NCBI GenBank assembly: GCA_030390025.1
Contig: CM059430.1
Span: forward strand, 32,736,001 to 32,800,000
From: Squalus acanthias
Lineage: Eukaryota
Length of the DNA: 64,000 nt
Direction of reading: 5' to 3'
Of this stretch, positions 3,430-62,879 are shown piece by piece. The position numbers and the translations under genes are program-made. How positions within the stretch are numbered: the stretch's first letter is position 1; each line of letters starts with the position of its first letter. The notes under the pieces were generated by a model. The model was not told the DNA's origin. It did no database searches and saw nothing but the letters and a program-made list of their open reading frames with translations.

Positions 3430-4908
3430 TTTAATTTTCTTCTCAGGATATGCACAACAATGGAAAAGCCACATTTTTATTGCCCATTCTTAGTTGCCTT
3501 AAGAAGGTGGTCATGGATCGTCTCCTTGAACCACTGCAGTTGCTTTGCTGATGGTGCTGCCACAATGGTGTTGGCTCAGCAATGATGTAGGAGTGGCAGT
3601 ATATGTTCAAGTCAGGATAGTGTGTGATTTGGAGGAGAACTGGCGTTTCAATGATATTACTGATCTTATCCTGCCTGGTGGTAGAAGTTAGGAGCTGCTG
3701 TTGAAGTAACCTTGATAAATTGCTGTAGTGTATCCTGTAGATATTACATACTGCAGCCACAGTGTGCCAGTAATGGAGGGTAGCTATTGAGTCCAGTGGT
3801 AGGAGCACCAGACAAGCAAGCTACTCTATGCTGGATGGTACAGAGCGGAGTGTTGTTGCACCTGCACCCAAACAGACGACCAATGTTCCCTCTAAAATTT
3901 TGTTGTTGTGCGTGGCCAGATTTTCTCAATGCGCAATACCTTTAAATTTTTTGTGCGGCCACTGCGTGGTATCTGAGAGCTTGTGCGTGGTCTGCGCTGT
4001 ACCTTCAGGATTGCTGCACGCCCGCGGGCAGCTTCGAGGAAACATTGCAGGTGACTGGTGAGTATTCCATCAGACTCCTGATTTGTGCCTTGTAGATGGT
4101 GGAGAGGCTTTCAGGGGTTCAGAGGAGAGCCAATTGTTACAGTGCACCCAGCCTCTGACCGGCTCGTGTAGCCATATTGTTTATATGGTTGGACCAGTTA
4201 AACTTCTGATCATTGGTGACCTCCAGGATGTTGATGGTGGTGCCATTGAAGATCAGGGGAGGTAGTTGGGCGTTTTTTTGTTGAAGTTAGTCATTACCTG
4301 GTGCTTATGTTATCTGGCATGTGTCAGATCTTACTGCAGACTGGCAGGGCTGCTTCATTATTGGAGGAGTTGTAAATACAGTTGAACACTCTAGAATCAT
4401 CAGTGAACTGCTCACATATGACCTTATGATGGAGGCAAGGTCACTGTAGAAACAGCTGAAGATTGTTGGGCAAAGAGCATTCCTGGAGCAACGTACTGAG
4501 GCTTCAATGATTGAAATCCAACAGCCACAATCATCTTCCTTTGTGTCAGGTATGACTGCAGCTTTGACCTCCCAGTTTTGCTAGGGCTCCTGGGTATCAG
4601 ACTCGGTCATACCCTGCCTTGATGTTGAGGACTGCTACTCTCACCTCACTTATGGCATTCAACTCTTGCATGCATGCCTGGATCAAGGATATGACAAGAT
4701 TTGAAGCCGACAGCTTCTGGAAGAACCTGAACTGAGCATCAGCGAGCAGTGAGCTGTTGCTTGATGGCAGTGTTGATGATTCCTTCCATTATTTTACTGA
4801 TTACTAGAAGGACGTGGATAGGGTGGTAATTGACCTGGTTATATTTGCCTTAATTTTTGTGGATAAGACATACCTACACAATTTTTAACATTGTTGGGTA
4901 AATGCCAG
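3430..4908 (-). mobile_element. Degenerate 5'-truncated LINE (RT and 3' tail), same family as 56379-59613
   Basis: ORF 3443-3808 (HTVAAVCNIYRIHYSNLSRLLQQ) matches ORF 56631-56960 (RTVAAVCTIYKMHCSNSPRLLRQ); colinear nucleotide similarity. Confidence 0.85.
3881..4047. mobile_element. hAT-like MITE (167 bp) nested in the LINE
   Basis: TIR CAATGTTCCCTC / GAGGAAACATTG; imperfect 8-bp TSD CAGACGAC / CAGGTGAC. Confidence 0.65.
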
Positions 4909-10663: not shown

Positions 10664-12318
10664 TGTAAGGTTTCCAAAATTTACAGATCCCCAAAACCTA
10701 AGGAAAAAGGACTTTGGAACTACTTCAGAGTGATAAAAACGCATTTGGGCCTAACCTAAGGAATTTAAGACCAAAAACCAAGTTTTGGCATTTTAAAAAC
10801 ATGTCTGGGCCTGTAAAGGGACAAGGAGGTGGGGTCGACCCCTGTAAAAGCAGTTTGGCTATTGCAGTTATTTACACTGCCTGGGGAACCAGGATGACCT
10901 CACTCAAGCCCCAGCTGGCATTAACATTTGAATAGACCCAGGGAAAAGACAGTCCCACCCAAAATACAGGCCCCATCAAAACCGATTACAGGGCCCATCA
11001 GAAACATGCATAATAAAAACCACTCAGACCCATTCTATAGAAAGACCGAGTCCAGCCTAAAAAACCAAACACGAAACCAATCACCAGTGATCAACCACGG
11101 AAATCGTCAGGATGCGAGTCATCCCAAAAACCATTTCACACTTACAGAGCAGTTACTGGTAACGAGCCCGCCAACACCTTATAAAGAGTAAGACAAGATT
11201 TGGCGCGCAGATAAGGCCATGTTCAATGGGTGAGATTGAAGGCCTGTTCAAAACCAGTTAACACGCTAGTAAAGTCGTTACCGTTGATGAGCCCACCAAA
11301 ACCAGACAATGAACTGAGCAGATTTGGCGGGCAGATAAGGCCACTTCAATTTGGTATAATTGAAGGCCTGTTAAGCGGTTCGACAGTCGGGTCATCAGCA
11401 TCACACACACAGTCGAGTGTGGAGACAAGGAGCATCATCACAGACCCAAGTCGAGCTGGAAGCGAGTCGGCATCGCTCACCACTCAGACACACCTGAGTC
11501 CACCTCGTGAAGATACCACCTCGACGGACCTCCAACAACGGTCCTAACACAGTCACCCGGAGCAACAAGCCAAAAAGCCACCAATGGCTCCACAAGGTCG
11601 ACCGACAGACTAGACAAGGCCTAAAACCATTGTGGAAACCAAAGGCCTCACAAAACCAACAACCGCATGTTACCCCCAACTGACCGGGTGATAGCAGGCC
11701 ACCGCGACCAACAAAGACCAACTCAAGGGAAGAAAACCCGAAGAACCGCAAAGTTTCCACTCTACAAACTACTCCTGACTTACCCCAGGGTAAGATTTTC
11801 CCAAAGACTCTAAACCCTATTGCTAACCAAAAGAAATTGGGTACTCACCAGATAAATCCAAACCGACATCCTACCGCATCAGCGGACTCGCGAAGACTGA
11901 CCAGATACGCAGGTGAAGTCCTCTACCGCGTACGGGGTACGGCAGACACTAACCGCCATAAACAACGAACCCCAAAACCGCGATTTAGCCGAACTGTCAA
12001 AGGATTGGTGAGCATTATCCCTGGTCCTTCAAAACCTAACTTAGCTAGGAAAGTGGGGTTGGGAGGGGTGAAGTATTGTTCTACTGTCATTTCCCTCGCT
12101 TGTACCGAAGTGTTCCCCATCTTTAGAGTGTTAAGAGTGTTATTATTTGTGTTTTACCTTTTTAATAAAGATTGAAGTTCTTTCATCAAACTCAGTTGTC
12201 TGCTGCACCTTTTATCACAACCCCCAAATAAGTCCAAGGTCTAGAACCAAGGGAGTGGGAGCGATTCGAACCGCTCAGAAGTCAGAGGTGAAGCTGACAC
12301 AAACCACCACCCCCTACA
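10664..12318 (+). mobile_element. Solo LTR A (1655 bp), ERV- or Gypsy-type
   Basis: TGTAAGG...CCCTACA termini; AATAAA at 12164; homologous to 61196-62879; AGAT flanks both sides (left copy overlaps the first T). Confidence 0.85.
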
Positions 12319-38584: not shown

Positions 38585-38773
38585 TTTTTTAAAAATTCAT
38601 TAATGGGATCAGGGCGTCGCTGGCAATGCCAGCATTTATTGCCCATCCCTAGTTGCCCTTGAGAAGGTTGTGGTGAGCCGCCTTCTTGAACCGCTGCAGT
38701 CCGTGTGGTGATGGTACTCCCACAGTGCTGTTAGGTAGGGAGTTCCAGGATTTTGACCCAGCGATGATGAAGG
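38585..38773 (-). mobile_element. 3' tail fragment of the tRNA-headed LINE family
   Basis: Closely matches 56381-56569. Confidence 0.85.
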
Positions 38774-41307
38774 TGGGTTTAATTAATGGTTTAATTCCAT
38801 TTAGATAACTTCTTTGTTTAAGTTTACTAAATAAATTAGGAATTTAAAAATAATACACTTTTTATTCACACTTTTCTGCTCATTTTTGTCCTTTTAACCA
38901 TGAAATAATTCAACCTTTGTATTCAAGTGTGATGTAACTTCATGTAATTAATATAACAGTGGAAGATTTTACCTGCATAATAACAGTCACTCCACTTCAA
39001 AAGTACCACATTGTGTGAGGCACATAAGATGTTGTAGTGTAATAAGGTACTAAATAAATGCAGATATTGTTGTATTCTAAGAGTAGTGACTCAGGAATCT
39101 GATTACTCATGACAAATGCTGTTGGATTCATAAGCCCTACGTACACCGAAAAAGACAAAATGTGGAAAATTCTGCTGAACTATCAGGGATCAGTGTCAAC
39201 AAATGTTGGATTAACAAGTCATCACTGGATTTGCTTGAACAAAACAAGTTGGTTTGATTTGGTCTGAAGCGATGTGCCTGTCTTCACTCTGGTCACAATG
39301 GAATTGCAGGTTCCTTGGAGATATGCCGTTTTTGAATGAGGCTCTGAGAACACTATTTTTAACCACGCACTCAATTCTTTAACTGCCAAACAGCCTATTT
39401 TTACATTTCACAAACATTTGCCTAATCACACCTTCTTTACTTCAATTAGATTCATTCTTCCCCTGCATTAGCTGCTCCATAAAGCCATTCATGTCAATTG
39501 CTGTAAAGGTAACTTAAGTAATGCATTCTCTTAATATAATAAATGGTTTATTAAAAAAAAAATTGGTATTACTTATTGAGAGCAAACAATTCAATTCAAT
39601 TCAAATCATTCAATTAATCGCTATTTAAGCTATCTCTATAAAATCATGATTTTAATAGTTTTGGTACCTCTGCTCCAGCAGTAACTAAAAGGACACTGAA
39701 ATATCTAAATGCTGGTCTTATTGAATGAATGACTGTCTGTAAGGTCCAATTACCAGCCCCCTGGATAGAGAGACAATATCCATCAGGCTTCCAATTACTG
39801 TAAATTGGTCAGAAATGTGTCAATAACAAGTAATCTGCCTCTGCATAGCATCCTGATCCCTCCTCCAACCTAATAATGACCACTTGCTTGTTTACAGTCA
39901 CCAGAATACATTCCTAAAGGTGTTCCTGAATGGCTGTTAGTTCAGCAGCTACCATTTTGGAAAAACGTCTTTTCTCCAAACCTAAAAATGTTCTTTTTGT
40001 TTCTTCCAGGCATGACAATATCATATGTGTCGATTCTTCTGGAATTATGTGAATTCACTGCCTACAAACCAAGATATAGGAGAAGAGCTATTGTTCAGTT
40101 CAATATCAGCCAATACACACCAAGCTAGGACAATGCTGTTGACCAAAACAATCTGAGTTGGTGTGTTGTAGGTGTAATTTCATGCTATTCTGGAAATGAG
40201 TTTGATGCATTCTTCCCCAGTACAAAAATTGGTTCCCTTTTGTTTCATGGCTTAATGGGGCTCCACTACTTCTACATAACAATCTTTTGAATTTCATTTA
40301 TTCAGTTGTTACAGAGAGTGAAATTTCACTCGCATTCTTAATACACAAACAGAAGGACAACAGCTCTGGTTCAAATCAAATTTCCTTCAAACAGAAAGAA
40401 AATACCTGCAACATATTAACACTCATGATCGATTTCCCGTTAGAAAACAATGGGCACTGCACAAAGAATATAATTAGGGTTCTGTGAAGCACTTAAATGA
40501 ATATTTTATATGTATATTTCTGTCAAGTGAATTGAAAATAAAATACCATTTCCTTTTACTTATATCCAATTGTATTTCTTCCTTTCACACAACAACGTTT
40601 AGCTGAAAATTGCTGCAACACGAATAATATCTTCAAATGTATTTTGCAAGATTACAAATTTACTGCATTTATTGCAAAAACAGTCATTCTTCCTTACAGC
40701 CTCTAGGACTGTAGTGAAAAGTATTTCTGATATGCTACCAAAATAAGGCCTATTAAAACTATGATAATAATATTACTTTATTATTTATAAGTCTTTTAAT
40801 TGCAGTTGAATGAATACCAGCGAGGCTGCTGTGAGTTCAATATGAATACTTCTTTGGTAAATGATCCCAGCTACATAACATCAGATAGCTCCATTCAGAT
40901 CAGGCTGCAGGATCTTTGAATGCAGTTCCTGATGTGGAAAATAAAACCTGGGGAAAGAATTTCTTTATTTTTGAAACTAGATTTTAATATTTGTCTTTCA
41001 AGTTCTAAAGTTCCAATGACGTAGATTTAGTAAATTATTCCCTAGAAGTGGTGTTAAAGAATATCCATGCTTTACATCCTTGTCATAACCAACTTCATTG
41101 CATGCCAGATGTCTACTATGGATAAATGTATATTCAGTTTTGAATTTGGAAAGTTGAAGAATTCAGGTCCTTGGGATTAAAATGTCACTGTAAGGAGGGA
41201 GAAACTTTGCTATGGAATGCGACACATATCTATACCAGCACCAGACCACCAGACATCAGTCACGATCTATCTCCTAATAGTCCAAACTCTCAGGGATCGG
41301 ACACATA

Positions 41308-44123: not shown

Positions 44124-45365
44124 CTATGCTCCCACCTTTCCATGTACCACATAACAAAAACTGGCTTTTTTTTCTTTTAAATCAACTACAAATGCTACAA
44201 ATGAACTACAAATCCAGTTTAATCCAGGTTTGCGGAGCCTTCCTGATCTCCTTACAAAAGGTTTTTGTGTTGAACCAATTTTCGGGCTGTTTTGTTCTGG
44301 TTCCGAACTCAAAGATGATCCTGTTTCTATCTCAGATTTGTTTGAACCTGGTACTTCAGTTTCTGAAGTTTGAATGCACTCGAACTCATGATCAAGTGGT
44401 TCAAGATCACATCTTGGCTTATCTCTAGCAGAGATCATTTGATCTACAAGAACACTTCGGATGTTGTCACCAATTTCAACCAAATATCTATTGGTTCCAC
44501 CAACCTCTACTATGGTTCCTATATCCCACTTGTGTGAACTCGACTTGCCAGGGGGACTGGGAACACGAATACACTTGTTTTGTCTGAAACTGCATTCTTT
44601 CTGATGGCTGTCATAATAACATTTCTGACTCAACTGTTTCTGTTCAACTCGTGAGGCCAAATTTGGATGAACAAGACTCAATCGTGTTCTCAATCTCCTC
44701 TTCATCAAGAGTTCTGCTGGAGTATATCCAGTTGTAGTGTACGGAGTAGTTCTGTACTTCAGCAAGAAATTTGCCAAACGTTGCTTCATGCTGAGTCACG
44801 AACAACCCTGCAACACTTGCTTCTTGAGAGCTTCTATTACTATTTTGACTGACCTTTTGGCTGCTCCGTTTGAAGCTGGATGATATGGTGGAACGAGGGT
44901 TTGTTTGATGCCGTTCCATTTCATGAACTCTTGGAATAGAGCAGAATGGAACTGAGGGCCATTGTCAGAAACAAGCTCTTCAGGTAAACCATGACACGCG
45001 AAGATAGACCTCAACTCATCTATGGTATGTTCAGTTGTAGTATTTGAACCCATGTGTTTCACTTCAATCCACTTTGAGTGACTATCTATAAGTACCATGA
45101 AATAATCATTTGCTTTCTCACAGAAGTCTACATGTACTCTCTGAAAAGGTCTACTTGGCCATGACCAGGGTTGTAGTGGAGTTTTGGGTGATTTGTTTCT
45201 GCAATTTTGGCAAACGCTGCATTTGCTGACAAGTGATTCAAGATCGCTGTCCAATCCAGGCCAGTAAACAAAGCTTCTTGCAATTGATTTCATACTGACG
45301 ATCCCTGGATGTTCAGTATGAAGTTCAGCCAGAATTCTATCTTTTAAAGAAGTAGGTACCACCAC
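44124..45365 (-). pseudogene. Gypsy integrase
   Basis: ORFs 44796-45365 and 44124-44789 with HHCC and DDE motifs. Confidence 0.9.
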
Positions 45366-45472
45366 TCTGTTTCCCCACTTGATAAACCTTGCTCACAAGA
45401 CAATTCAGTACGACGGTTATGGAATGGTTTCAACTCTGTGTCCAGACACTGATCAGTCAAGGTGTCTTCACA

Positions 45473-49626: not shown

Positions 49627-51160
49627 ATGGCAGTGCAGGTGGTGGGCCGCAACTGCAGCATGTGGGAGTTTGTGGAGAGCGTTGTGGTCCTGGACAACCA
49701 CGTTTGCAGTAAGTGCCTGCATCTTGAGGAAATTCAGCTCAGAGTTTTTGAGCTGGAGTCTGAGGTGCAGACATTGCAGGGCATCAGGGATGGGGAGAGT
49801 TACCTGGACACTTTGATCCAGGAGGCAGTTAGGTTAGGTAGTGGTACAGGTCTGGTTAGTGGTCAGGGACAGGAGGGTGTGACTGCAACTCAAGCAGGTA
49901 AGGGGACCCCAGGTGCAGTGCTGGAGGAGCCTCAGCCTTTGAGCTTGTCCAACAGGTATGAGGTTCTTGCTCCCTGTGTGGATGAGGGAAAAGCCTGCAG
50001 GATGGATGAGCAAGCTGATCATGGTACCATGGTGCAGGAGGCCATTCAAGTTGGGGGAGTGAAAGGGAATGTAGTTGTGGTAGGGGACAGTATAGTCAGG
50101 GGGATAGATACTGTTCTCTGCAGCCGCGACTGAGAGTTCCAAAGATTGTGTTGCCTGCCCGGTGCCAGAGTTAAAGACATCTCCTCGCGGCTGGAGAAGA
50201 ACATGGAGTGGGAGGGGGAGGATCCAGTTGTCATGGTCCATTAAGGAACCAATGACATAGGACCATGTACAGCAGGCACCTCAAAGCACTGCTGCCTCCG
50301 CAAGATCCTGCAAATCCATTGGCAGGATAGGCGCACCAACGTCAGTGCTCTCGCTCAGGCCAACATCCCCAGCATCGAAGCTTTGACCACGCTCGATCAG
50401 CTCCGATGGATGGGCCACATCGTCCGTATGCCTGATACGAGACTCCAAAAACAAGCTCTACTCGGAGCTCCGACACGGCAAGTGAGACCCAGATGGGCAG
50501 AGGAAACGCTTCAAGGACACCCTCAAAGCCTTCTTGAAAAAGTGCAACATCCCCACCAACACCTGGGAATCCCGGCCCAAGACCGCACAAAGTGGAGGAG
50601 AAGCATCCGGGAAGGCGCCGAACACCTCGAGTCTCTTCGCCGGGAGCAAGCGGAAGCCAAGCAGAAGGAGCGCACGTCAACCCAAGCACCCCACCCACCC
50701 GCTCCTTCAACCACCGTCTGCCCCACCTGTGACAGAGACTGTAGGTCCCGCATTGGACTCATCAGTCACCTGAGAACTCATTTTTAGTGTGGAAGCAAGT
50801 TATCCTCGGTTCCGAGGGACTGCCTAAGAAGAAGAAGAAGGTAGAACTAGGAATGAGGTTCTGCTGAGGGAGTTTAAGGAGCTAGGATCCAAATTAAAAA
50901 GTAGAACCTCAAAGGTAATAATCTCTGGATTGTTACCTGAGCCACACACAAATTGGCATAGGGACAAACAGATTAGAGTTTAAATGCATGGCTCAAAGAG
51001 TGGTGTGGGAGGAAGGGGTTTCAGTTCATGGGGCACTGGCGCCAGTACTGGGGAAAGAGGGAGCTGTTCCGTTGGGACAGGGCTCCACTTAAACTGGGCT
51101 GGGACCAGTGTCCTGGTGAACTGAATAACTAGGGCAGTAGACAGGGCTTTAAACTAATGA
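49627..51160 (+). pseudogene. CR1 ORF1 (zinc finger, coiled coil, SGNH esterase)
   Basis: CSMW..CSKC, LESEVQTL heptads, VVVGDSIVRGID; premature TGA at 50131 and an RTE insertion. Confidence 0.85.
50262..50840 (+). mobile_element. RTE-clade LINE 3' fragment
   Basis: QLRWMGHIVRMPDTRL, CPTCDRDCRSRIGLISHLRTH; (AAG)n tail. Confidence 0.88.
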
Positions 51161-52397: not shown

Positions 52398-52700
52398 AAA
52401 GGATCTTAGCTCTGAAAATCAAGAAGTAGAATCAGTTTGGGTGGAGCTAAGAAATAGCAAGGGGCAGAAAACATTGGTGGGAGTTGTTTATAGGCCCCCA
52501 AATAGTAATTGTAATGTAGAGTATAAATCAGGAAATTAGAGGCGCATGTAACAAGGGTAATACAGTAATCATGGGGGACTTTAATTTACATATAGACTGG
52601 GCAAACCAAATTTGCAGTAATAGTGTGGAGGACGAATTCATAGAATGTATGCAAGATAGTTTTCTAGATCAGTATGTTGAGGAACCAAGTAGGGAACAGG

Positions 52701-55700
52701 CCACATATCTTTCACAGCCACATATCTTTCCTCAGCAACTGTCTCCGGCTCCGACTTACTCCACGTGGATTCCAACTGAAATTCCACCCTTCGTGTTTTG
52801 GATCCACCCAGGACTACAGATATCTCCAAGATATTCAGCGTTCCTCGAACCACTGCTCTCGCCGTATCCTGAGATCCACGCTGAATGCCATGCAATGCCA
52901 CGTGAACACTCTCGACCTCTCTCTTCAGCAGCACCGACTCACTCTATCTCAAAGCTGTCCTGGTCCGCAGTTCCATTTCATCCTTCGCCTCATCCGGCGC
53001 TTTAACAAAAAACTTTATTTCTTCCTTTCAGGTGTCAAGGATCGCAAGATTCAACAACTCTTGGACACCAACGCCCCTCTGGAACCTTCTTCCCCTTCAC
53101 TTTCCTCTGGCCCTATCCCTTCTCCCAATCTCACCCACTGCTGCGTTTTCACTATCCCCTCTGACCTTCCCCTCTCTGACCCCGAACGATTAGTCCTTAG
53201 CAAAGGCCTGAGCTTCATCCCCTTACGCCTCCACCTCAATGAATTTCGAGCTCGGCATGATGCTGAGCTCTTTTTCCGCCTGCCTTCATCTCCGTGCCCA
53301 CTTCTTTGGCCAGGAGTCTTCCCCCCGCACAGCTGACCCTTTCTCCCGCTTTCAGAATTCTCGTTCTACCTGGACCCCTCCCTCTTGCCTCTGAACCTCT
53401 CTAGATCTTTTCATTGCAAACTGCCGGCGTGACATTGGCCGTCTCCGTTTCTCTGCTCCACTCACTCACTCCAACCTACCTCCCTCTGAACTTGCAGCAC
53501 TCCATTCTCTCAGATCCAACCCTAACATTGTCATTAAACCTGCTGACAAGGGTGGTGCTGTTGTTGTTTGGCGTACCGACCTCTACCTAGCGGAAACTGA
53601 ACGCCAACTCTCCGACACCTCCTCCTACCTCCGCCTGGACCATGACCCCACTACCGAACATCAAGCCACCGTTTCCAAGACTGTCACTGACCTCATCTCC
53701 TCTGGAGATCTTCCCCCCACGACTGCCAACCTCATAGTTCCCCAACCCCGCACAGCCAGCTTCTACCTCCTTCCCAAGATCCACAAACAGGACTGCCCTG
53801 GTAGACCCATCGTTTCAGCCTGTTCTTGCCTCACAGAACTTATCTCTTCCTATCTCGACTCTATTTTTTCTCCCCTTGTCCAGTCTCTTCCCACCTACAT
53901 CCGCTACTCTTCTGACGCCCTCCGCCACTTTAACAGTCTCCTGGCCCCAACAGCCTCCTTTTCACTATGGACGTACAATCCCTCTACATCTCCATCCCCC
54001 ACCAGATGGCCTGAGGGAGCTCCGCTTCTTCCTTGAACAGAGGCCCAACCAGTCCCCATCCACCACCACCCTCCTCCGCCTGGCTGAACTTGTTCTCACA
54101 TTGAACAACTTCTCCTTTGACTCCACTCACTTCCTCCAAATCAAAGGTGTTGCTATGGGAACCCGCATGGGTCCTAGCTATGCCTGCCTTTTCGTGGGAT
54201 ATGTGGAACATTCTCTGTTCCAGTCCTACTCAGGTCCCCTCCCTCACCTCTTTTTCTGGTACATTGATGACTGTATCGGTGCCGTTTCCTGCTCTCGCCC
54301 TGAACTAGATAATTTCATTCACTTTGCTTCCAATTTCCACCCTTCCCTCACCTTCACATGGTCCATCTCCGACTCTTCCCTTCCCTTCCTCGACTTCTCC
54401 GTCTCCAGCCCTGGGGATAGGTTATTGACAAACATTTACTACAAGCCCACTGACTCCCACAGCTACCTGGACTACACTTCCTCCCACCTCGCTTCCTGTA
54501 AGGACTCTATTCCATTCTCCCAGTTTCTCCGTCTCCGCCGCATCTGCTCTGATGATGCCACCTTCCATATCAGTGCTTCGACATATCTTCCTTTTTCCTC
54601 AACCGAGGATTCCCCTCTACTGTGGTTGACACGGCCCTTGACCGTGTCCGTTCTATCTCCCGCACTTCTGCCCTCACCCCTGCCCCTCCCTCCCTCCCGG
54701 AACCACAAGAGAGATCCCCTTGTCCTCACCTTTCACCCCACCAGCCTCCACATTCAATGAATCATCCTCCGCCATTTCCGCCACCTCCAGCGTGATACCA
54801 CCACCAAACACATCTTCCCCTCACCTCCCCTTTCAGCATTCCGAAGGGACCGCTCCCTCCGCGACACCCTGGTCCACTCCTCTATCACCCCCAACACCCC
54901 TTCCCCTTCGCCCGGCACCTTCCCGTGCAAGCGCAGGAGATGCAACACATGCCCTTATACCTCCCCCCTTCCCACTGCCCAGGGCCCCAAACACCCCTTC
55001 CAGGTGAAACAGCGATTTACTTGTACTTCTTGCAATTTAGTATACTGTATTCGCTGCTCACGATGCGGTCTCCTCCACATTGGGGAGACCAAACGTAGAT
55101 TGGGTGACCACTTTGCGGAACACCTCCGTTCAGTCCGTAAGGGGGACCCCGAGCTTCCGGTCGCCTGTCACTTTAATTCTCCGCTCCACTCCCACTCAGA
55201 TCTCACCCTCCTCGGTCTCTTGCATTGTTCCACTGAAGCTCAGCGTAAGCTCGAGGAACAGCGCCTCATCTTTCGATTAGGCACTTTACAACCTTCTGGA
55301 CTCAACATAGAGTTGACCAATTTCAGATCATAACCTCGGCCCCTATCATATATATATTTTTTATCCACACCTTTTGTTTGTGTCTTTTCTTCTCTCCCAC
55401 ATGGCAGCTGTCTTTCATTCTGCCAGCGCAATTTACACTTCATCTAGAGCCATCCTTTGTTTCTTAACCTGTCCCATTACCATCTCCTTTTGCCTTGAAT
55501 ATCTCTTAATGTCTCTTAACCTCTCCTGCCTTCTATCCTATCACTGACCTTCCCTTTTGTTCTTTCATCCCCTCCCCACTTTCCCAGCTCCTACACTTTC
55601 TTAAAAATCTGTTCCATTTCCTGCTTTTTTCAGATTCTGATGAAAGGTTATCGACCTGAAACGTTAACTCTGTTTCTCTCTTCACAGATGCTGCCTGACC

Positions 55701-55770: not shown

Positions 55771-56630
55771 TAGGGAACAGGTTACTTTAGATCTAGTATT
55801 GTGCAATGAGAAAGAGTTAATTAATTACCTTGTAGTAAAGGGGCCTTTAGGGAAGAGTGACCCTAATATGATAGAATTTTATATTGAGTTTGAAAGTGAT
55901 TTAGTTAAATCCGAAACTAGGGTCTTAAATCTAAACAAAGAAAACTACGTAGGTATGAGGGGCGAGATGGCTAAGGTAGATTGGGAAACTACATTAAAAG
56001 GTATGACGGTGGAGAAGCAATGGCTTGTATTTAAAGAATGAATACATAATTTACAACAAATATACATTCCCTTAAGGCACAAAAACCCCACAGGAAAAGT
56101 GGTCCAACTGTGGCTAACAAGAAAAGTTAAAGATAGTATTCGATCAAAGGAAGAGGCTTATAATGTTGCCAAAAAGAGTAGTAAGCCTGAGGATTGGGAG
56201 GATATTAGAATTCAGCAAAGGAGGACCAAGAAATTGATAAAGAAAGGGAAAATAGAATGAGAGTAAACTAGTGAGAGACATAAAAACAGACTGTAAAAGC
56301 TTCGAAAGGGATGTAAAAAGGAAAAGATTACCAAAAGTAAATGTGGGTTCCTTACAGGCTGAGACAGGAGGAAATTATTATTTTTTTAAAATTTATTTAT
56401 GGAAACTGGGCGTCGCTGGCAATGCCAGCATTTATTACCCATCCCTAGATGCCCTTGAGAAGGTGGTGGTGAGCCGCCTTCTTGAACCGCTGCAGTCCGT
56501 GTGGTGATGGTACTCCCACAGTGCTGTTAGAGAGGGAGTCCCAGGATTTTGAACCAGCGACGATGAAGGATCGGCGATATACTTCTAAGTCAGGATGGTG
56601 TGTGACTTGGAGGGGAACTTGGAGGTGGTG

Positions 56631-59280
56631 TTATTCCCATGTGCCTGCTGCCCTTGTCCTTCTAGGTAGAAGAGGTCGCGGGTTTGGGAGGTGCTGCCGA
56701 AGAAGCCTTGGCGAGTTGCTGCAGTGCATCTTGTAGATGGTACACACTGCAGCTACGGTACGCCGGTGGTGGAGGGAATGAATGTTTAAGGTGGTGGATG
56801 GGGTGTCAATCAAGCGGGCTGCTTTGTCCTGGATGGTGTCGAGCTTCTTGAGTGTTGTTGGAGCTGCACTCATCCAGGCAAGTAGAGAGTATTCCATCAC
56901 ACTCCTTACTTGTGCCTTGTAGATGGTGGAAAGGCTTTGGGGAGTCAGGAGGTGAGACACTCACCGCAGAATACCTAGTCTCTGACCTGCTCTTGTTGCC
57001 ACAGTGTTTATGTGGCTGGTCCAGTTAAGTTTCTGGTTAATGATGACGCCCAGGATGTTGATAGTGGGGGATTCGGCGATGTTCATGCCATTGAATGTCA
57101 AGGGGAGGTGGTTAGACTCTCGCTTGTTGGAGATAGTCATAGCCTGGCACTTCTGTGGCACGAATGTTACCTGCCACTTATCAGCCCAAGCCTGAACGTC
57201 GTCCAGGTCTTGCTGCATTTGGGCATGGACTGCTTCATTATCTGTGGAGTTGTGAATGGCGCTGAACACTGTGCAGTCATCAGCGAACATCCCCATTTCT
57301 GACCTTATGTTGGAGGGAAGGTGATTGATGAAGCAGTTGAAGATGGTTGGGCCTAGGACACTGACCTGAAGAACTCCTGCAGCGATGTCCTGGGGCTGTG
57401 ATGATTGACCTTCAACCACCACAACCATCTTCCTTTGTGCTAGGTATGACTCCAGCCAGTGGCGCGTTTTCCCCCTGATTCCCATTGACTTCAGTTTTAC
57501 TAGGGCTCCTTGATGACAGACTCGGTCAAATGCTGCCTTGATGTCAAGGGCAGTCACTCTCACCTCACCTCTGGAATTCAGCTCCTTTGTCCATGTTTGG
57601 ACCAAGGCTGTAATGAAGTCAGGAGCCGAGTGGTCTTGGCGGAATCCAAACTAGGCATCAGTGAGTAAGTGCCGCTTGATAGCACTGTCGATGACACCTT
57701 CCATCACTTTGCTGATGATTGAGAGTAGACTGATGGGGCGGTAATTGGCAGGGTTGAATTTGTCCTGCTTTCTGTGGACAGGACATACCTGGGCAGTTTT
57801 CCACATTGTTGGATAGATGCCAGTGTTGTAGCTGTACTGGAACAGCTTGGCTAGAGGCGCGGCTAGTTCTGGAGCACAAGTCTTTAGCACGATAGCCGGG
57901 ATGTTGTCGGGGCCCATAGCCTTTGCTATATCCAGTGTGCTCAGCCGTTTCTTGATATCACGTGGAGTGAATCGAATTGGCTGAAGACTGGCTTCTGTGA
58001 TGGTGGGGACCTCGGGAGTAGGCTGATATGGATCATCCACTCGTCACTTCTAGCTGAAGTTGGTCACGTGCTGGGCTCCACCATCATTGAGGATGGGGAT
58101 ATTCTTGGAGCCTCCTCCTCCTGTTAGTTGCTTAATGGTCCACCACCATTCACGACTGGATGTGGCAGGACTGCAGAGCTTTGATCTGATACGTTGATTG
58201 TGGGATCGCTTAGCCCTGTCTATTGCATGCTGCCTCCACTTTTTAGCATGCAGGTAGTCCTGTGTTGCAGCTTCCCCAGGTTGGCACCTCATTTTTAGGT
58301 ACGCCTGGTGCTGCTCTTCTACACTCGTTGTTGAACCAGGGTTGGTCCCCTGGCTTGATGGTAATGGTAGAGTGAGGGATATGCCGAGCCATGAGGTTAC
58401 AGATTATGGTGGAATACAATTCTGCTGCTGCCCCACAGCGCCTCATGGATGCCCAGTTTCAAGCTGCTAGATCTGTTCTGAATCTATCTCATTTAGCACG
58501 GTGGTAGTGCTACACAACACGATGGAGGGTGTTCTCAGTGTGAAGATGGGACTTCGTCTCCGCAATGACTGTGCGGTGGTCACTGCTACCAATGCAGTCA
58601 TGGACTGCATCTGCGATAGGTAGATTGGTGAGGACGAGGACAAGTAGGTTTTTCCCTCGTGTTGGTTCACTCATCACCTGTCGCAGGCCCAGACTCGCAG
58701 TTATGTCCTTCCGGTCTTGGCCAACTCGGTCAGTAGTGGTGCTACCGAGCCACTCTTGGTGATGGACATTGAAGTCCCCCACCCAGCGTACATTCTGTGC
58801 CCTTGCTACTCTCAGTGCTTCTTCCAAGTGTTGTTCAACATGGAGGAGTACTGATTCATCAGCTGAGGGAGGGCAGTAGGTGGTAATCAGCAGGAGGTTT
58901 CCTTGCCCATGCTTGACCTGAAGCCATGAGACTTCATGGGGTCCGGAGTCAATGTTGAGGACTCCCAGGGCCACTCCTCCCTGACTGTATACCACTGTGC
59001 CACCACCCCTGGTGGGTCTGTCCTGCCGGTGAGACAGGACATACCCAGGGATGGTGATGGAGGAGTTCAGGATATTAGCTGAAAGGTATGATTCTGTGAG
59101 TATGACTATGTCAGGCTGTTGCTTGACTAGTCTGTGGGACAGCTCTCCCAATTTTGGCACAAGTCCCCAGATGTTGGTGAGGATGACTTTGCAGGGTTGA
59201 TTGGGCTGGGTGTGCCGTTGCCAGTACCGAGGTCAATGCCGGGTGGTCCATCTGGTTTCATTCTTATTATTTTGTTTCAT
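56631..59280 (-). pseudogene. APE endonuclease-reverse transcriptase ORF of the tRNA-headed LINE
   Basis: In-frame ATG at 59280; LTNIWGL, LTES, GDFN, SSDH, NYRPISLL, DIKAAFD, FADD; a few stops and frameshifts. Confidence 0.9.
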
Positions 59281-59522
59281 AGCGGTTAGTTACAACTGAG
59301 TGACTTGCTAGGCCATTTCAGAGGGCAGTTAAGAGTCAACCACATTGCTGTGGGTCTGGAGTCACATATAGGCCAGACCAGGTAAGGACGGCAGATTTCT
59401 TCAGGACATTAGTGAACCAGATGGGTTTTTACGACAATCCAATAGTTTCACGTTACCATTACTGATACTAGCTTTTTTTATTCCAGATTTATTTAATTAA
59501 CTGAATTTAAATTGCCCAACTG

Positions 59523-59613
59523 CCTTGGTGGGATTTGAACTCACGTCTCTGGATCATAAGTCCAGGCCTCTGGATTACTAGCCCAGTGACATTACCACTA
59601 CGCTACCATTCCC
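59523..59613 (-). promoter_or_regulatory. tRNA-derived internal Pol III promoter
   Basis: A box TAGCGTAGTGG (59605-59595) starting at about +9; B box GTTCAAATC (59540-59532). Confidence 0.85.
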
Positions 59614-61195
59614 TTTTATAATAGGGAATAAGGAAATGGCAGAGAAATTAAACAAATACTTTGTGTCTGTCTTCGCGGAAGAAGACGCAAAAAACTTCCC
59701 GGAAATAGTGGAGAACCAAGGCTCTAGCAAGATTAAGGAACTGAAAGAAATTAGTATTAGTAAAAAAAATAGTACTGGAGAAATTAATGGGACTGAAAGC
59801 CAATAAATCCCCTGGACCTGATGGCCTACATCCTAGGGTTTTGAAAGAGGTGGCTATAGAGATAGTGGATGCATTGGTTGTCATTTTCCAAAATTCCATA
59901 GATTCTGGAACGGTTCCCATGGATTGGAAGGTAGCAAATGTAACCCCACTACTTAAGAAAGGAAGGAGAGAGAAAACGGGGAACTACAGACCAGTTAGCC
60001 TGACATCAATAGTCGGGAAAATGCTAGAATCTATTATTAAGGACGTGGTAACAGGGCACTTAGAAAATAATAATAGGATTGGGCAGAGTCAACACGGATT
60101 TATGAAAGGAAAATCGTGTTTGACAAATCTGTTAGAGTTTTTTGAGGTTGTAACTAGCAGAATAGATAAGGGGGAACCAGTGGATGTGGTGTATTTGGAT
60201 TTTCAGAAGGCATTCGATAAGGCGCCACACAAGAGGTTATTAAACAAAATTAGGGCTCATGGGATTGGAGCATGGATTGAGGATTGGCTAACGGACAGAA
60301 AACAGAGAGTAGGAATAAACGGGTCATTTTCAGGTTGGCAGGCTGTAACTAATGGGGTACCACAAGGATAAGAGCTTAAGCCTCAGCTATTCACAGTCTA
60401 CATCAATGATTTGGATGAGGGGACCAAATGTAATATATCCAAGTTTGCTGATGATACAAAGCTGGGTGGGAATGTAAGTTGTGAGGAGGATGCAAGGAGG
60501 CGTCAAGGGGATATAGACAGGCTAAGTGAGTGGGCAAGAACATGGCAAATGGAATATAATGTGGAGAAATGTAAAGTTACCACTTTGGTAGGAAAAATAG
60601 AAAAGCCGAGTATTTTTTAAATGGTGAGAGATTGGGAAATGTTGGTGTTCAGAGGGACCTGGGTGTCCTTGTACACGAATCACTGAAAGGTAACATGCAG
60701 GTACAGCAAGCAATTAGAAAAGCAAATGGTATGTTGGCCTTAATTACAAGAGGATTTGAGTATAAGAGTAAAGACGTCTTACTGCAGTTATATAGGGCCC
60801 TGGTGAGACCACACCTGGAGTATTGTGTACAGTTTTGGAGTTCTTTGAGGATGTAACAAGCAGGGCGGACAAGGGTGAACCAGTGGATGTAGTGTATTTG
60901 GATTTCCAGAAGGCATTCGATAAGGTGCCACATAAAAGGTTACTGCAAAAGATAAGAGCTCACAGAGCTGGGGTAATATATTAGCATGGATAGAGAATTG
61001 GCTAACTAACAGAAAGCAGAGAGTCGGGATAAATGGGTCATTTTCTGGTTGGCAAACAGGTGCCACAAGGATCGGTGCTGGGGCCCCAACTATTTACAAT
61101 CTACATTAATGACTTGGATGAAGGGATCGAGTGTAATGTAGCCAAGTTTGCGGATGATACAAAGATGGGTGGAAAAGCAAGTTGTGCAGAGGACT

Positions 61196-62879
61196 TGTAA
61201 GGTTTCCAAAATTTGCAGATCCCCAAAACCTAAGGAAAAAGGACTTTGGAACTACCTCAGAGTGATGAAAATGCATTTGGGCCTAACCTAAGGAATATAA
61301 GACCAAAAACCAAGTTTTGGCATTTTAAAAAACATGTCTGGGCCTATAAAGGGAGAAAAGGCTGTGAAAGAAGGTGGGTTCAACCTCTGTAAAAAGCAGT
61401 TTTGGTTATTGCAGTTAATTGCACTGTCTGGGGAACCGGGATGACCCTACTCAAGCCCCAGCAGGCAGTAACATTTTGACAATAGACCCTGGGAGAAGAC
61501 AGTCCCACACAAAATAACAGGCCCCATCAAACCGATTACAGGTCCCATCAGAAAACTTGCATAATACAAATCACTCAGGACCAGTCTATAGAAAAGACTG
61601 AGTCCAGCCTAGAAACCCAAAACACGAAACCAATCACCAGTGATCAGCCAAGGAGATCGACAGGATGCAAACCATCCCAAAACCCAGTTGACACTTACAG
61701 AGCAGTTACTGGTAACAGGCCCGCCAAAATTCAGACAATGAACTGAGTAGATTTGGCGGGTAGATAAGGCCATGTTCAATGGGTGAGATTGAAGGCCTGT
61801 TAAAAACCCAGTTAACGTGCTAGTAAGTCGTTACCGATTTACGAGCCCGCCAAAAACCAGACAATGAACTGAGTAGATTTGGCGGGTAGATAAGGCCACT
61901 TCAATTTAGTATAATTGAAGGCCCATCAAGCAGTTCAAGGTCAAGCAGTCGAGCAGTCAGTCGCAACCGGTGGTCATCAGAAGAAGAAGAAACCAGGAAG
62001 AAGAAAACCCGAGCTGGAAGCGAGTCGGCATCGCTCACCACTCAGACACACCTGAGTCCAGCTCGTGAAGATACCACCTCGACGGACCTCCAACAACGGT
62101 CCCAACACAGTCACCCGGAGCAACAAGCAGCAACAAGTCACCGACGGCTCCACGAGGTTGACCGACACACGAAACAAGGCCTAAAGCCATCGCGGAAACC
62201 AAAGGCCTCACGAAACCAACAACCGCGCATTACCCCCAACTGACCGGGTAATAGCAGGCCAGCGCGACCAACAAAGACCAACTCCAGGGAAGAAAACCCG
62301 AAGAACCGCAAAGTTTCCACTCTACAAACTACTCCTGACTTACCCCTGGGTAAGATTTTCCCCAAAGACTCTAAACCCTACTGCTAAACCAAAGAAATTG
62401 GGTACTCACCAGATAAATCCATAACGACATCCTACCGCATCAGCGAACTCGCAAAGACTGACCAGAGACTCAGGTGAAGTCCTCTACCGCGTACGGGGTA
62501 CGGCAGACACCAACCGCCATAAACAGCGAACCCCAAAACTGCGATTTAGCCGAACTGTCAAAGGATTGGTGAGCATTATCCCTGGTCCTTCAAAACCTAA
62601 CTTAGATAGTAAAGTGGGGTTGGGAGGGGTGAAGTATTGTTCTACTGTCATTTCCCTCGCTTGTACTGAAGTGTTCCCCACCTTTAGAGTGTTAAGAGTG
62701 TTATTATTTGTGTCTTACCTTTTTAATAAAGATTGAAGTTCTTTCATCAAACTCAGTTGTCTGCTGCACCTTTTATCACAACCCCCAAATAAGTCCAAGG
62801 TCTAGAACCAAGGGAGTGGGAGCGATTCGAACCGCTCAGAAGTCAGAGGTAAAGCTGACACAAACCACCACCCCCTACA
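61196..62879 (+). mobile_element. Solo LTR C (1684 bp)
   Basis: TGTAAGG...CCCTACA; 4-bp TSD GACT; homologous to LTR A. Confidence 0.9.

Follow-up and report, generated by a model that had tools for sequence, protein, structure and literature searches.

Depletion of T runs on the sense strand of a tRNA-headed Zenon LINE in Squalus acanthias: circumstantial support for transcription by RNA polymerase III

Introduction

LINEs are viewed as products of RNA polymerase II (Pol II), and SINEs as non-coding products of RNA polymerase III (Pol III). tRNA-derived SINEs with a Deu domain, including SacSINE1, have been described in sharks, chimaera and coelacanth (PMC5499810, PMC4824008). In the available parts of these papers, the SacSINE1 tail is assigned to L2-2_CM (78.6%) by tail homology only (PMC5499810), and the function of the conserved SINE body domain is stated to be unknown (PMC4824008). 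The Zenon LINEs of elasmobranchs are represented, in the available part of the source, by SquAca_Zenon-1, -2 and -3 and by the Zenon-1 consensuses CarCar, RhiTyp, ScyCan and HypSab (Stuart et al. 2026, PMC13343379).

The degenerate sequences T3VT2, T2VT3, T3VT, TVT3 and T2VT2 have been assayed as Pol III terminators, according to the accessible text of PMC3141230. In the T+ SINEs B2, Dip and Ves, the terminator is described as regrowing, with the T run lengthening while the A tail shortens (PMC8466645, available part). Literature searches, run outside subscription papers and Repbase, yielded no title or abstract dealing with a tRNA-headed or Pol III-transcribed LINE. Here we analyze a Zenon LINE in a 64,000-nucleotide stretch of Squalus acanthias DNA (the window), which a preliminary description had reported to lack Pol III terminators on its sense strand.

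Results

Anatomy and identity of the element

The flanking sequence shows that the Zenon LINE copy is inserted in a plus-strand CR1 fragment. Its features are as follows.

56381 to 59613, minus strand: whole Zenon-type LINE copy, decayed, with about 3.3% substitutions relative to the family majority
59520 to 59613, minus strand: tRNA-like SINE-type head, with its 5' end at 59613
59595 to 59605, minus strand: Pol III A-box-like motif, named from the sequence
59531 to 59540, minus strand: Pol III B-box-like motif, named from the sequence
59293 to 59519, minus strand: SINE body, common to the short SINE form of the genome, from comparison with SINE loci
56445 to 59289, minus strand: single endonuclease and reverse transcriptase frame, broken in this copy by stops and indels
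56392 to 56444, minus strand: 3' UTR including AATAAA (56439-56429 region), common with the SINE tail
56381 to 56391, minus strand: tail, in which sense TTTT, the first sense T4 in 3.2 kb, precedes a short run of A
56392 to 59613, minus strand: stretch that has no sense T4 and contains 6 T3 runs and 2 windows of four T in five

As in Zenon LINEs of the CR1 group, an APE endonuclease and a reverse transcriptase lie within one frame, where Pfam places Exo_endo_phos(_2) within 58513-59232 and RVT_1 within 56964-57650. The frame of the family majority has 973 codons. ORF1 is absent: about 330 nt lie upstream of the frame, and the family majority contains no other frame longer than 150 aa. Most copies carry short A tails. 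The motifs in the head were named after the A-box and B-box consensus, and the body is presumably the Deu domain of SacSINE1. The head has the 5' position and the A and B boxes of a SINE2 of the Deu type, and its Rfam tRNA match (24.5 bits, E 0.064, 59520-59584) is below the gathering score of 29; ARAGORN called no tRNA in the head. Taken as a whole, the first 468 nt at the 5' end showed no special folding stability (z = 0.44). Tested against the definition of a tRNA-derived SINE as short and non-coding, the element is 3.3 kb long and its frame is under purifying selection.

Over the first 400 nt, SquAca_Zenon-1 is nearly letter-identical by eye to our subfamily majorities, and because of this match, rather than a reverse transcriptase tree, we regard the family as the Zenon LINE already published (PMC13343379, consensus seen over that stretch). 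By eye, a tRNA-like head stands at the start of 7 of 7 elasmobranch consensuses, which represent four shark species and one ray, and similar A-box- and B-box-like motifs occur in the published consensuses of five elasmobranch species, as far as these are available (PMC13343379).

The family in the Squalus genome

Thirty copies fetched from the 3.7-Gb genome differ by 2-5% from their own majority. A 24-letter pattern across the body-to-frame junction has 2,336 exact matches in the genome, a lower bound on the copies, and a control pattern has 0. All 29 of the other best head matches, picked by likeness to this copy, continue past the junction. Among copies picked on the head motif, 38 of 39 have identical first bases and unrelated flanks; the 11 copies with both ends showed no consistent target-site duplications.

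Shared variants comprised 54 synonymous and 43 non-synonymous changes, compared with 1022 and 3022 among rare variants (P=4e-10). From this excess of silent changes among shared variants, it follows that the source elements used the protein. The six subfamily majorities, into which 80 of 115 long copies fall, are no more than 65 nt apart and belong to one lineage, so that the sample is effectively one sequence.

The short SINE form consists of the first ~334 nt and the last ~75 nt of the LINE. All 25 fetched SINE loci fit this layout: each follows the majority as far as nt 333-340, where the 3' tail takes over. The short-form junction has 58 exact matches in the genome, and the joint is also present in contigs of other organisms. 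Several different junctions were seen among the short forms (L339-L363), all of them breaking directly after the SINE body, which suggests either that internal deletions of the LINE have recurred or that an older SINE has decayed.

The window holds two more pieces of the same Zenon family, a young 3' fragment at 38585-38786 (minus strand) and a piece at 3476-4908 (minus strand) with about 24% divergence, most likely an old copy. A head-less sister family was sought in this genome with old copies, and the searches gave the same family again. Elsewhere in the window, integrase-like frames at 44127-45392 (minus strand) are of the LTR retrotransposon type by motif, and 11404-12172 and 61890-62736 are similar copies of one repeat with short frames.

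Sense-strand run counts

The plus strand between 56392 and 59613 had been described as having no AAAA, about six AAA runs and roughly a dozen TTTT runs. Our counts agree: 0 runs of at least four A, exactly 6 of at least three A, and 11 of at least four T, which include all five cited positions. Since the element is on the minus strand, its RNA is without U4. The flanking AAAA stand at 59689 and at 56388, the latter being the sense TTTT within the 3' tail of this copy, and the 3301-b gap between them is the longest AAAA-free gap in the window (the next is 2596 b). That second gap, 53007-55603, was considered as a like signal and rejected: it is due to the A-poor strand of a Penelope-like element, in which T3 numbered 13 against 14.2 expected. 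Among the 287 other overlapping 3.2-kb tiles, taken from both strands of the whole window with minus-strand tiles overlapping the element excluded, none was T4-free, and the lowest observed-to-expected ratio of windows with four T in five was 0.85, compared with 0.13 for the element.

In 75,207 b from 30 copies of the family we found 7 sense T4 and 301 A4, and 16 of 30 near-full copies are still T4-free; a larger set of 126 copies had 35 sense T4 in 300,829 b. The preliminary description had also contrasted the element with neighbouring CR1 elements. Its example of TTTT near 60136 is present, but the comparison is confounded by T content (0.249 vs 0.188).

Depletion compared with null models

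The absence of sense T4 was significant when compared with base shuffles (P=0.007), but not with dinucleotide, codon-order or synonymous-codon shuffles (P=0.16-0.22; dinucleotide 0.17). A comparison with a composition- and codon-matched null had been set beforehand as a check on the proposed signature, and on this count the zero matches the codon- and dinucleotide-matched nulls; the T4 count was dropped as the decisive statistic because it is not significant against matched nulls.

Several run statistics were tried, and shorter and interrupted runs behaved differently from T4. The 6 sense T3 runs compare with 22.6 expected from base shuffles (P<0.0005) and 11.8 from dinucleotide shuffles (P=0.02). 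In the frame, 5 T3 were found against 11.4 expected under synonymous-codon shuffling, with protein and codon usage held fixed (P=0.0045); G3, C3 and A3 in the frame were not depleted under the same shuffling. Windows with four T in five numbered 1, compared with 5.8 under the matched null (P=0.008) and 9.5 for base shuffles (P=0.001), and windows with four A, C or G in five had no comparable deficit.

For degenerate terminators, whose classes were picked after the T3 result was known, the sense strand of the whole majority contains 0 T4, 0 TVT3, 0 T3VT and 1 T2VT2, and the antisense strand 8 TVT3, 15 T3VT and 19 T2VT2. Thus, of the degenerate classes in the available part of PMC3141230, only the single T2VT2 is left in the family majority, which otherwise has no internal run of at least four T and no degenerate terminator on the sense strand, as a Pol III unit would; one small subfamily majority carries a TVT3.

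The use of TTT and TTC for phenylalanine, another check proposed at the outset, pointed in the same direction. TTT was used at 0 of 13 sites before A or C, compared with 94 of 342 comparable T/C sites (P=0.017), and all 3 TTT Phe codons stand before G. The Phe content of the protein is 1.8%, compared with a mean of 3.5% in homologues, 2 of 97 being as low (97 of the 120 listed homologues, those of 800 aa or more). The remaining Phe residues are nearly all in conserved columns. Another protein match, the shark gene model P0118 ('aldo-keto reductase-like'), has 71% identity to the LINE protein over a third of the query and is likely exonised or mis-annotated.

Shared variants gave no signal of a terminator purge in a test that was underpowered. 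C>T changes at a frequency of at least 5% were found at 1 of 13 T4-creating sites, 4 of 39 sites creating four T in five, and 38 of 482 other sites, and two R>T variants that make such windows are common (18/112 and 24/98).

Comparison with other families

A further check proposed at the outset was whether Pol II-driven LINEs of similar composition show equal depletion, and the proposed signature passed it: in the same genome, an RTE family has equal or lower T and no depletion. The observed-to-expected ratio of TT was 0.71 for the element, compared with 1.01 for RTE (T=0.186), 1.11 for Penelope-like and 1.16 for CR1 elements. Four RTE copies (T=0.18-0.19) each have 1-3 T4, and their 6-14 windows of four T in five are as expected; six copies of the Zenon family have 1-4 such windows against 13-15 expected. 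None of these three retroelement families of the genome is depleted to the degree of the element. The RTE control came from a 3' fragment of an RTE-type LINE with a T-poor sense strand, at 50245-50784 of the window (plus strand). A young reverse transcriptase element at 52668-55333 (plus strand), about 95% identical to many copies and with a majority frame of about 925 codons, is by motif what we take to be the Penelope-like one.

The run counts would look no different under selection of any other kind against U tracts. U tracts could thus be avoided at the RNA level, whichever polymerase is used, through U-rich binding proteins, small-RNA silencing, cryptic cleavage-polyadenylation or slippage of the reverse transcriptase, and a Pol II transcript, given the two AATAAA in its 5' part, could pay a cost for U-rich elements further downstream. 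However, the RTE, CR1 and Penelope-like elements share the host and show no depletion, and we consider avoidance at the RNA level distinctly improbable.

Comparison with relatives

The frames of relatives were compared in 107 of the 151 fetched loci, those with a frame of at least 500 aa; the fetched relatives are mostly AT-rich and 28-41% identical, and the closest ones (40-44%) are not among the compared DNA. None of the 107 was T4-free, and their ratio for four T in five had a median of 1.14 and a minimum of 0.69, compared with about 0.11-0.13 for the element. The minimum belongs to L268, a partly depleted relative (T 0.20, TT 0.80, Phe 2.2%, one T4) and the sole one with a long frame whose T drops as far as 0.20. 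The contig of L268, which has just 33 b upstream of the frame, shows no head. tRNA-like heads were found on relatives neither by BLAST (151 loci) nor by Rfam (20 loci), ARAGORN at a relaxed threshold made nine calls in 8 of 151 loci, and no headed relatives were found in the viral collection. Dozens of animal CR1-group LINE contigs (L268-L338) lie within bacterial genome bins of symbionts, where they are most likely host contamination.

By eye, the seven headed elasmobranch consensuses have no TTTT in their first 400 nt, and hagfish Zenon-1, which is without a head, has several T4 runs in its first 400 nt; this contrast, seen over that part of the consensuses, is weak evidence because the stretch is common to a SINE.

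These comparisons bear on the possibility that the T pattern is a compositional legacy, part inherited from a T-poor, Phe-poor, GC-rich Zenon ancestor and part chance, with the SINE body serving as a Pol II promoter or 5' UTR. The agreement of the T4 zero with matched nulls, the partial depletion of L268, the equally Phe-poor homologues and the missing sign of an ongoing purge in the underpowered variant test are all consistent with such a legacy, and the available text of PMC5786205 assumes that Pol II makes bipartite LINEs. On the other hand, depletion remains with protein and codon usage held fixed, the element lies far below the minimum among the 107 relatives, and the flanks of the copies before the first G are unrelated. 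We judge a compositional legacy unlikely.

The 3' tail

By a rough parse, the tails of the copies have 1-9 T before short A runs, with at least four T in 12 of 71 tails, including that of this copy. These tails look like the regrowing terminators of T+ SINEs (PMC8466645), but the T runs before the A tail may arise after insertion or by neutral decay.

Translation start

The first in-frame Met of the family majority is codon 287, which lies past the endonuclease, and 6 of 6 subfamily majorities lack an earlier one. By comparison, 37 of 39 scorable relatives have an in-frame Met at or before the start of the endonuclease. Nine ATGs are present in the first ~370 nt, and every one of them either lies in another frame or soon runs into a stop. 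A start at the out-of-frame AUG near 59261 followed by a -1 frameshift is disfavoured because ATA replaces it in 6 of 28 copies, which form a diagnosable older subfamily, and because the long frame is preserved across the linker in 27 of 28. The frame opens at 59278-59286 (minus strand) with an A-T-K-type motif and then a basic stretch. The homologue P0013 starts with M-A-T-K, hinting that the motif may mark an AUG-less start; third positions in the A-T-K region vary by eye between the published shark consensuses, as far as available. The absence of AUG would fit cap-independent, non-AUG translation, which a Pol III RNA without a cap would require.

The uniform start, the missing AUG and the kept tRNA-like fold could also be accounted for without a long Pol III transcript, if Pol II read through from host promoters and RNase P-type processing cut the RNA at the 5' side of the tRNA-like head, leaving a precise 5' end on an uncapped RNA. 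The R2 RNA, which is freed by a ribozyme, is a parallel. However, read-through with processing gives no reason for a T-specific and sense-specific depletion, and splice donors, acceptors and pyrimidine tracts, signals that a Pol II transcript could avoid, are not depleted on the sense strand. We regard it as quite unlikely.

Discussion

The anatomy of the element, its copy number, the purifying selection on its frame and the depletion are established, and the depletion is confirmed to be real, strand-specific and T-specific. The preliminary description took the absence of T runs as support for Pol III transcription. As far as T4 is concerned, this argument fails; the TTT runs, the degenerate terminators, the Phe codons and the low Phe content lend it partial support. 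The support for Pol III is circumstantial and comes from one source lineage.

On balance, the element is probably a Pol III-made, self-coding LINE, with transcription driven by the head behind the depletion of T runs. Pol III would initiate at the head's first G and cross 3.3 kb, and source variants with T4 or degenerate terminators would be lost. Reading of 3.3 kb by Pol III would account for why TTT codons are avoided and why Phe has been cut back largely to conserved positions. Transcription would end either at a T run that grows within the A tail or somewhere in the flanking sequence, and polyadenylation via the 3' AATAAA may follow, like that of mammalian T+ SINEs. The uncapped RNA would be translated without AUG from a start directly after the SINE body. 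The resulting protein would reverse-transcribe the RNA in the usual target-primed way, and would mobilise the short head-and-tail SINE form as well. As to origin, a Zenon frame that entered an elasmobranch ancestor probably took over a Deu-type SINE head already resident there, though the order may have been the reverse. To our knowledge, there is no natural precedent for a 3.3-kb translated Pol III RNA, which counts against Pol III transcription of the element.

A bolder proposal, which we consider doubtful, is an 'autonomous SINE': a coding Pol III retrotransposon predating the shark-ray split, with terminator-avoiding recoding that includes the loss of Phe, and with the Deu-type body as an internal ribosome entry element for the AUG-less, uncapped RNA. 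If true, this role of the Deu-type body would give the long-unexplained central domain of SINEs a testable function, and one construct would make both the role of the SINE body domain and the translation of an uncapped AUG-less RNA testable. A natural 3.3-kb Pol III RNA encoding its own transposition enzymes would blur the line between LINEs and SINEs, and a protein sequence would have been moulded by a transcription terminator.

Comparison with known systems

The element resembles several described systems, each in part. Like the T+ SINEs B2, Dip and Ves, it has AATAAA near the 3' end and a spread of T1-T9 before short A tails; unlike the candidate LINE, those SINEs are short, non-coding and mammalian, and their polyadenylation has been proven experimentally (PMC8466645, available part). 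It shares with SacSINE1 and the Deu SINEs a tRNA head with A and B boxes, a conserved body and a LINE-type tail, but these are non-coding, whereas the Zenon element has the 973-codon frame under purifying selection (PMC5499810, PMC4824008, available parts). As with Persaeus, the SIDE of Zenon in Lepidoptera, a Zenon LINE yields short, internally deleted copies; unlike the Squalus short form, Persaeus lacks both homology to tRNA and a Pol III promoter in the accessible account (PMC6740152).

The closest system is the elasmobranch Zenon LINEs of PMC13343379, which in the available part of that paper likewise have no ORF1, a single APE-RT frame, an A tail and a length of about 3.3 kb. The word 'tRNA' is absent from its main text and the readable part of its supplement, and 'polymerase III' from its main text, and the parts available do not describe the head, the terminator depletion or the missing AUG. 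The Zenon LINE clade and a published consensus are known, and the analysis adds a description of the head, the depletion and a useful but circumstantial case for Pol III.
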